From UHGV virus genome UHGV-0179104: DNA of 12,111 nucleotides; one strand, given 5' to 3'. The DNA comes from a virus. The notes beneath the pieces were generated by a model. The model searched no databases, was not told the DNA's origin, and saw nothing but the letters and a program-made list of their open reading frames with translations. This document shows, piece by piece, positions 11,749 to 12,111 of this stretch. The stretch's first letter is position 1; each line of letters starts with the position of its first letter. The translations under genes and the position numbers were made by a program.

Positions 11749-11822
11749 GGATTGATCCAGTAATTCCCTCAGAATTGCATATCAATTTGCTTAGAGTCCC
11801 CGGCGGCCACCGGGGATTTTTT
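11749..11822 (+). ncRNA. oop: OOP-like antisense small RNA overlapping the 3' end of the cII-like gene
   Basis: Plus strand GGATTGATCCAGTAAT...CAGAA... resembles the lambda oop 5' region (GUUGAUAGAUCCAGUAAUGACCUCAGAAC from memory); ends in a hairpin TCCCCGG-cggcca-CCGGGGA (11797-11816) plus T6 (11817-11822). Ends are approximate. Confidence 0.6.
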
Positions 11823-11993
11823 CTTTGTGATTCCATCAAGCGCATACTTAAAAGCCCTGCTAATCGGACTGATGTCTGATGCCATTCCGAAAGCACACAA
11901 GACCGAAGCAATAAACCGCCAGTCCGTTCTGCTTATCTTCGATTCATGACAGCCAATCATCTTTGCCAGACCACGCTGGGTAAGCGTTGACAA
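11769..11993 (-). CDS. cII: CII-like transcriptional activator (lysogeny establishment), start codon uncertain
   Basis: Product ...LINLSTLTQRGLAKMIGCHESKISRTDW...GITKKKSPVAAGDSKQIDMQF aligns with lambda CII (HTH ...DKSQISRWKRDW... and C-terminal ...ILTNKKRPAATERSEQIQMEF). The frame stays open upstream to a stop at 12075-12077 with no in-frame ATG or GTG; the track start at 11993 is a TTG. Confidence 0.65.
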   Translation of the reverse strand: MSTLTQRGLAKMIGCHESKISRTDWRFIASVLCAFGMASDISPISRAFKYALDGITKKKSPVAAGDSKQIDMQF

Positions 11994-12111
11994 GTTGATG
12001 AGTAAATCTGTTTCTGCGCGATCAACGTCGCGCTGTGATAGTTTGCTGTAACTTGTTTGGGTAATGACTCCAACTTATTGATAGTGTTTTATGTTCAGAT
12101 AATGCCCGATG

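Follow-up and report, generated by a model that had tools for sequence, protein, structure and literature searches.

Disruption of the lambdoid cII gene by an IS element is a kind of event that is already known, a textbook IS insertion. The classical example is lambda r14, which is reportedly a polar IS1 insertion in lambda cII and is said to be among the first IS insertions described. The locus analyzed here lies at the end of a window of 12,111 nt (the whole stretch of DNA that was studied). It resembles r14 in the element (IS1), in the target (a lambdoid cII in the pR operon), in the loss of cII and in a possible polarity on O and P. It differs from r14 in that the cII of the window is of the 933W/HK022 type and its product is 33% identical to lambda CII. 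In addition, the insertion in the window lies at codons 2/3, and it represents an allele of a natural prophage, whereas r14 is a laboratory mutant.

Two further cases are found in prophages related to that of the window. In E. coli CE0007a (NZ_CP119011.1; L003:1785-2552), cro and cII are separated by a full-length IS1 of 768 bp, which is flanked by the 9-bp duplication TGGAAATCT. The element, its orientation and the prophage module are the same as in the window, and the two sites are only 21 bp apart, that of CE0007a being the upstream one. However, the IS1 of CE0007a is upstream of the cII RBS, so that the 98-aa cII frame is intact. Given that its junction is different and that its cII region is 97.6% identical to that of the window, we regard it as an independent event. 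In the other case (GCA_000618605.1, JHIO01000062.1; L016:1-240), cII is cut at approximately codon 18 and is called as a 63-aa fragment; the truncating sequence resembles the end of an IS3-family element (…GGATTTCCGGGGCGGTTCA), which we take to be IS629-like. This is also an IS-disrupted cII of the same family, but the element is a different one, the break is deeper, and the prophage is distinct and encodes an O protein of 312 aa. Together with the window, this makes three IS insertions, independent of each other, within cII or directly upstream of it in related prophages, which suggests that IS elements often target this short AT-rich stretch.

For the window, we consider it highly probable (approximately 0.93) that an IS1 was inserted in the 5' end of cII, in the same orientation as the gene, and that cII was inactivated by ordinary gene disruption. 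The features of the window that bear on this reading are the following.

11769-12059, minus strand: cII remnant, codons 3-98 and the stop, without ATG ACA; shows 100% identity to the intact CII (98 aa) of E. coli 13E0767 and C3 (WP_000195204.1)
11991-11993, minus strand: TTG from which the ORF track begins; corresponds to codon 25 (Leu) inside CII, which is likewise TTG in the nearest relatives but CTG in 933W
12059-12060: IS1/cII junction; IS1 ends at 12060, and cII begins at 12059 with codon 3 (CAA)
12060-12111, minus strand: IS1 right end, made up of the 3'-terminal part of insB and then the right inverted repeat (plus strand GGTAATGACTCCAACTTATTGAT...); matches annotated IS1A/IS1B copies at 52 of 52 bases
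12063-12071, minus strand: GGAG (12071-12068), TC and ATT (12065-12063), wholly inside the IS1 terminal repeat
12075-12077, minus strand: TAA that opens the apparent cII frame; stop codon of the IS1 transposase (insB), by chance in frame with the cII remnant, and equal to the end of the transposase CDS of CE0007a (L003, 2537)

The minus-strand frame from 12077 to 11769 translates as a stop, VGVITQTSYSKLSQRDVDRAETDLLIN, L, STLTQRG...DMQF and a second stop. It consists of the TAA at 12077-12075, 27 sense codons, the TTG at 11993-11991, from which the ORF track derives a 74-aa product, and the remaining codons up to the stop at 11771-11769. A sequence-only reading of this DNA had described a CII-like frame that is open for about 27 codons upstream of the TTG, that contains no ATG or GTG, and that faces no plus-strand cat in 12001-12111. 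The count of 27 sense codons was reproduced by translation, and a script showed that ATG and GTG are absent from all three minus-strand frames of 12111 to 11991, while the whole plus strand of 11994-12111 is free of both CAT and CAC. The only in-frame TTG within 12111 to 11991 is that at 11993. The same reading had named the ATT at 12063-12065, next to GGAG, as the sole start-like codon. Both motifs are present, with a spacer of 2 nt between them; an in-frame ATC, which was not mentioned, occurs at 11999.

The similarity to CII upstream of the TTG is real. The 101-residue translation matches the Pfam family Phage_CII (PF05269; curated cut-off 21.3 bits) over residues 13-93 and profile positions 6-88 of 91, with 106.3 bits and E = 9.4e-31. 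BLASTP against the lambda CII sequence gave an E-value of 4e-9 at the above identity of 33%, with the alignment running from RAETDLL / RIESALL onward. Because the Pfam match begins 15 residues ahead of the Leu encoded by the TTG, the TTG ORF represents a truncated product, and the use of either TTG-25 or ATG-36 as the start would lose part of the CII domain. The identification of the upstream frame as cII nevertheless holds only for 22 of its 27 codons (QTSY...LIN); IS1 accounts for the first five (VGVIT) and likewise for the TAA, the GGAG and the ATT. The cII of the window is a gene fragment rather than an intact member of PF05269: where the relatives have a complete CII frame of 98 aa with its own start, the window offers neither an ATG or GTG nor a TTG in frame ahead of codon 25. 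A look-up of the 74-aa TTG product gave no record, and that of the 63-aa ATG product gave as its only match the unrelated IS3-family truncation mentioned above.

The last 52 bases of the window are identified by their sequence as IS1 and not as phage DNA. Searched alone, this piece had 71,008 matches of 100% identity, spread over 4,959 of the 5,426 complete E. coli genomes (median of 10 per genome) and over both chromosomes and plasmids; the annotation at these places reads 'IS1-like element IS1A/IS1B family transposase'. A 152-nt query spanning the junction matched 72,568 places in 5,051 of the complete E. coli genomes. The 52 bases also coincide, base for base, with the terminus of the complete IS1 (768 bp) in CE0007a. 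Read on the minus strand, they give …HYLNIKHYQ, the TAA, and then the right inverted repeat …AAGTTGGAGTCATTACC, and the terminus of the element falls exactly at 12060 (…GGAGTCATTACC). The piece therefore has the two marks of IS1, namely a right terminal inverted repeat that follows the end of insB, and a dispersed multicopy distribution in enterobacterial genomes. IS1 and cII have the same reading direction, and IS1 leaves the window at 12111.

The phage side of the junction was defined by megablast of 11700-12111 against phage records, which yielded 297 matches, including 933W, BP-4795 and many Stx1/Stx2 phages. Among the phage matches listed, all begin at query base 53, which corresponds to window position 12059, and therefore the last 52 bases of the window are not phage. 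The annotated cII of 933W and of AU5Stx1 starts 6 nt upstream of the point equivalent to 12059. Moreover, IS1 has the same last nucleotide (…CATTACC) at both independent junctions, those of the window and of CE0007a, and its boundary with cII can thus be set between 12060 and 12059.

The intact ancestral sequence is found in the relatives of this prophage. An O-protein look-up gave ten contigs with the same prophage module, the tenth of which (L015) is described below; the other nine, together with E. coli C3 and 13E0767, constitute the 11 relatives compared here (L004-L014), which show 99.0-100% identity to the window over the matched segments. At the junction point all 11 read …AAGAAATGACA/CAAACAAGT…, and over a wider stretch …GGGAATAGTAAGAAATGACA/CAAACAAGTTACAGC…, with a 98-aa CII that begins MTQTSYSK…. 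Between the window and 13E0767 (L008) there are zero differences across 8189-12059. In comparison with the intact CII (WP_000195204.1; 933W-type, PF05269), the window copy is identical in DNA over codons 3-98, but it lacks its first two codons, including the ATG, and the native sequence ahead of them. No functional related phage was seen to share the exact sequence of the window; the intact relatives all have ATG ACA, and the sole other assembly that shares the window sequence, L015, has the identical IS1 junction. In the window, the IS1 bases ATT ACC stand in frame for the native ATG ACA, with four of six bases shared. This coincidental resemblance is the reason why the junction looked like a degenerate start, and why some megablast matches reach query base 47.

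Based on this comparison, we propose that, in a lambdoid prophage of E. coli, IS1 transposed into cII at its extreme 5' end and in the orientation of the gene. The right terminal repeat of the element (…AAGTTGGAGTCATTACC) abuts codon 3 of cII, and the native RBS, ATG and codon 2 (AAGAAATGACA) would have been displaced beyond the 768-bp element. The startless open frame is composed of 22 true cII codons and five codons of the IS1 tip, bounded upstream by the stop of the transposase; as a cII remnant without a usable start, it would be a pseudogene. The 9-bp target duplication would be CAAACAAGT (12059-12051, minus strand), with a second copy expected across IS1 by analogy with CE0007a; IS1 normally duplicates 9 bp of its target, and occasionally 8 bp. 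For a simple insertion, the predicted order is cro–ATGACACAAACAAGT–IS1(768 bp)–CAAACAAGTTAC…, so that the left junction should read ATGACACAAACAAGT/GGTGATGCTGCC; the far side would read cro–…AAGAAATGACACAAACAAGT–IS1 and would leave a 13-codon stub (MTQTSGDAANLLI and a stop). The predicted left junction, with a gap of 0-14 nt allowed, was not found in the genome-contig and viral-contig scans.

We infer a simple insertion, with the 9-bp duplication and with cro/cI on the far side, from the arrangement in CE0007a. From the visible side of IS1, which extends for 52 nt in the window and 125 nt in L015, the loss of cro/cI in a deletion or inversion mediated by IS1 would be indistinguishable from such an insertion.

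A very unlikely alternative is that the gene is functional, in that initiation at the ATT, with fMet at the position of the native ATG, yields MTQTSY…, which is wild-type CII. It is true that ATT ACC replaces ATG ACA in frame, that codon 2 specifies Thr in both, and that the gene table of L015 gives a product of 98 residues from the ATT. In addition, the TAA of the transposase is in frame 9 nt upstream, so that termination-reinitiation is possible in principle. However, GGAG is separated from ATT by no more than 2 nt, and it is generally known that AUU is a very weak start codon that is discriminated against by IF3. Transcripts from pR would also have to cross 768 bp of IS1, and CII is needed at a high transient concentration, while pRE itself appears to be split (see below). 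Furthermore, the two motifs are the invariant tip of IS1 at approximately 71,000 places in E. coli, whatever the flanking sequence, and hence they give no evidence of adaptation; the suggestion of a non-canonical start designed around the ATT and its neighbouring GGAG is not supported. Efficient initiation at the ATT seems unlikely. The probability is equally slight that the IS1 tip rebuilds a start from which weak or reinitiated translation provides wild-type CII at a low level, under the control of IS1 rather than of pR.

The preferred reading, an IS1 insertion, also requires that the junction is real, and a second assembly bears on this point. L015 (GCA_900406625.1) is 100% identical to the window over 5832-12111 and then continues for 73 further bases into IS1; the contig stops 125 nt inside the element, and 125 of these 125 bases are the same as in the IS1 of CE0007a. 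The identical junction is thus present in two distinct assemblies, which differ from each other by 22 SNPs in 934-1091, by a 1-nt indel at 2471 and by an alignment break at 5832-5854. It could be argued that a chimeric join of IS1 and cII was created during assembly without any real insertion, given that both the window and L015 end inside IS1. However, short-read contigs end inside a multicopy IS where an insertion is real, and such ends are therefore expected here. The join is located at the exact terminal nucleotide of IS1, and the two assemblies that carry it differ elsewhere, as described above. We consider an artefact even less probable than a functional ATT start. Exact-pattern scans for the right junction did not find it in the GTDB representative genomes, IMG/VR or the JGI metagenomes, and the window junction was absent from the 5,426 complete E. 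coli genomes searched by megablast, in which only the different junction of CE0007a was matched.

Finally, an ATG-to-ATT point mutation in an otherwise uninterrupted cII region, to which the four of six bases shared by ATTACC and ATGACA might point, is ruled out by the alignments, because the sequence upstream of 12059 is unlike the cro-cII spacer of every relative and matches IS1 throughout, at 52 bases in the window and 125 in L015.

In the public record of L015 (OVBT01000066.1; L015:120-416), the gene table gives a 98-residue Phage_CII product from the ATT at position 120. At least one annotation therefore takes the tip of IS1 as a start codon and records the disrupted cII as intact. The present analysis corrects this point, in that the apparent ATT start, listed as part of an intact CII in at least one public contig, belongs to what we interpret as an IS1-disrupted pseudogene. 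The termini of IS elements can imitate start signals, and this calls for caution in annotation.

The IS1 insertion may also have affected the promoter on which CII acts. CII binds the sequence TTGC-N6-TTGC(/T) flanking the -35 region of pRE, and a one-base variant of the box has been reported in the Stx phage Φ24B (PMC4651098, PMC2629481). The following features of the window are relevant here.

12043-12056, plus strand: CII-binding direct repeat TTGCTGTAACTTGT (TTGC-N6-TTGT) of the predicted pRE, found by motif scan; antisense to cII codons 4-8
10837-11736, minus strand: replication gene O, 299 aa, intact; the next gene of the operon after the cII remnant, with the exact protein on many contigs
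10139-10840, minus strand: replication gene P, 233 aa, intact; PF06992 in relatives

The location of the TTGC-N6-TTGT box is consistent with that of pRE: O and P come directly after cII, the box lies in the 5' coding region, and cro is seen in all intact relatives, its place here being beyond the edge of the window. From this arrangement we infer that the box belongs to pRE. It is 3 nt from the IS1 junction. In the intact relatives, according to the geometry read from L005, the box is followed 13 nt beyond by TACTAT, the native -10, whereas the window has IS1 bases at that place. A gap of 13 nt is presumably also the spacing between the second TTGC of lambda and its -10. Judging from the sequence, the insertion would part the CII box and the -35 region of the predicted pRE from the -10. 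The activator CII and its target promoter would then both be broken, and with the function of CII and of pRE the establishment of repressor would probably be lost. The sequence-only reading had suggested that cII is inactivated and that the prophage may be defective for lysogeny, and this suggestion gains support, as the ATG and codon 2 are gone from the visible side and the predicted pRE is split. Maintenance of the resident prophage from pRM should be independent of both CII and pRE.

The prophage is one that was recently crippled: its other early genes are all intact and nearly identical to those of complete relatives. It would have lost the activator and probably also the promoter for establishing lysogeny, and this bears on whether a phage released from the host strain could lysogenise new hosts. 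IS1 may possibly exert polarity on O, P and Q. In 933W, nutR is upstream of the insertion point, and therefore N-modified transcription might read through IS1, if lambda biology can be taken as a guide. A hybrid promoter directed outward from the tip of IS1 was another candidate; it was rejected, because a consensus scan of the cII strand over 11600-12111 revealed no sigma-70-like site.

Some other observations concern the opposite strand and the remainder of the prophage. Antisense to the 3' end of cII, a promoter-like sequence (TTGAGT-17-CATAAT, 11711-11739, plus strand) and a strong stem-loop with a T run (11793-11828, plus strand) were noted. This is the layout that would be expected of an oop-like antisense RNA as in lambda; a search against Rfam gave no RNA family across the window, and hence no match to this candidate.

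At position 2471, the window has one A missing in comparison with L015, L006 and L008. The deletion splits a gene that encodes 247 aa in the relatives (PF27470 TfpB; phrog_14371/1521) into ORFs of 172 aa and 80 aa (2216-2458 and 2455-2973, minus strand), and represents either a second lesion of the prophage or a sequencing error. In the lysozyme gene, 22 substitutions are concentrated in the 158 bp of 934-1091 when the window is compared with the otherwise near-identical L006, L008 and L015, a pattern that resembles a small patch of recombination. GAAATA-type units form a short, A-rich tandem repeat within 5787-5921, around 5831-5854; its copy number differs from that of L006, and it breaks the alignments to other relatives. 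Lastly, an ORF of 590 aa (6170-7942, plus strand) runs counter to the nin-region genes around it, on the other strand, and is located in a stretch of low GC content (33-36%, compared with about 46-50%). It matched no Pfam or NCBIfam family, its sole match being phrog_9230 (unknown function), and it is kept in all related prophages; it looks like a moron.
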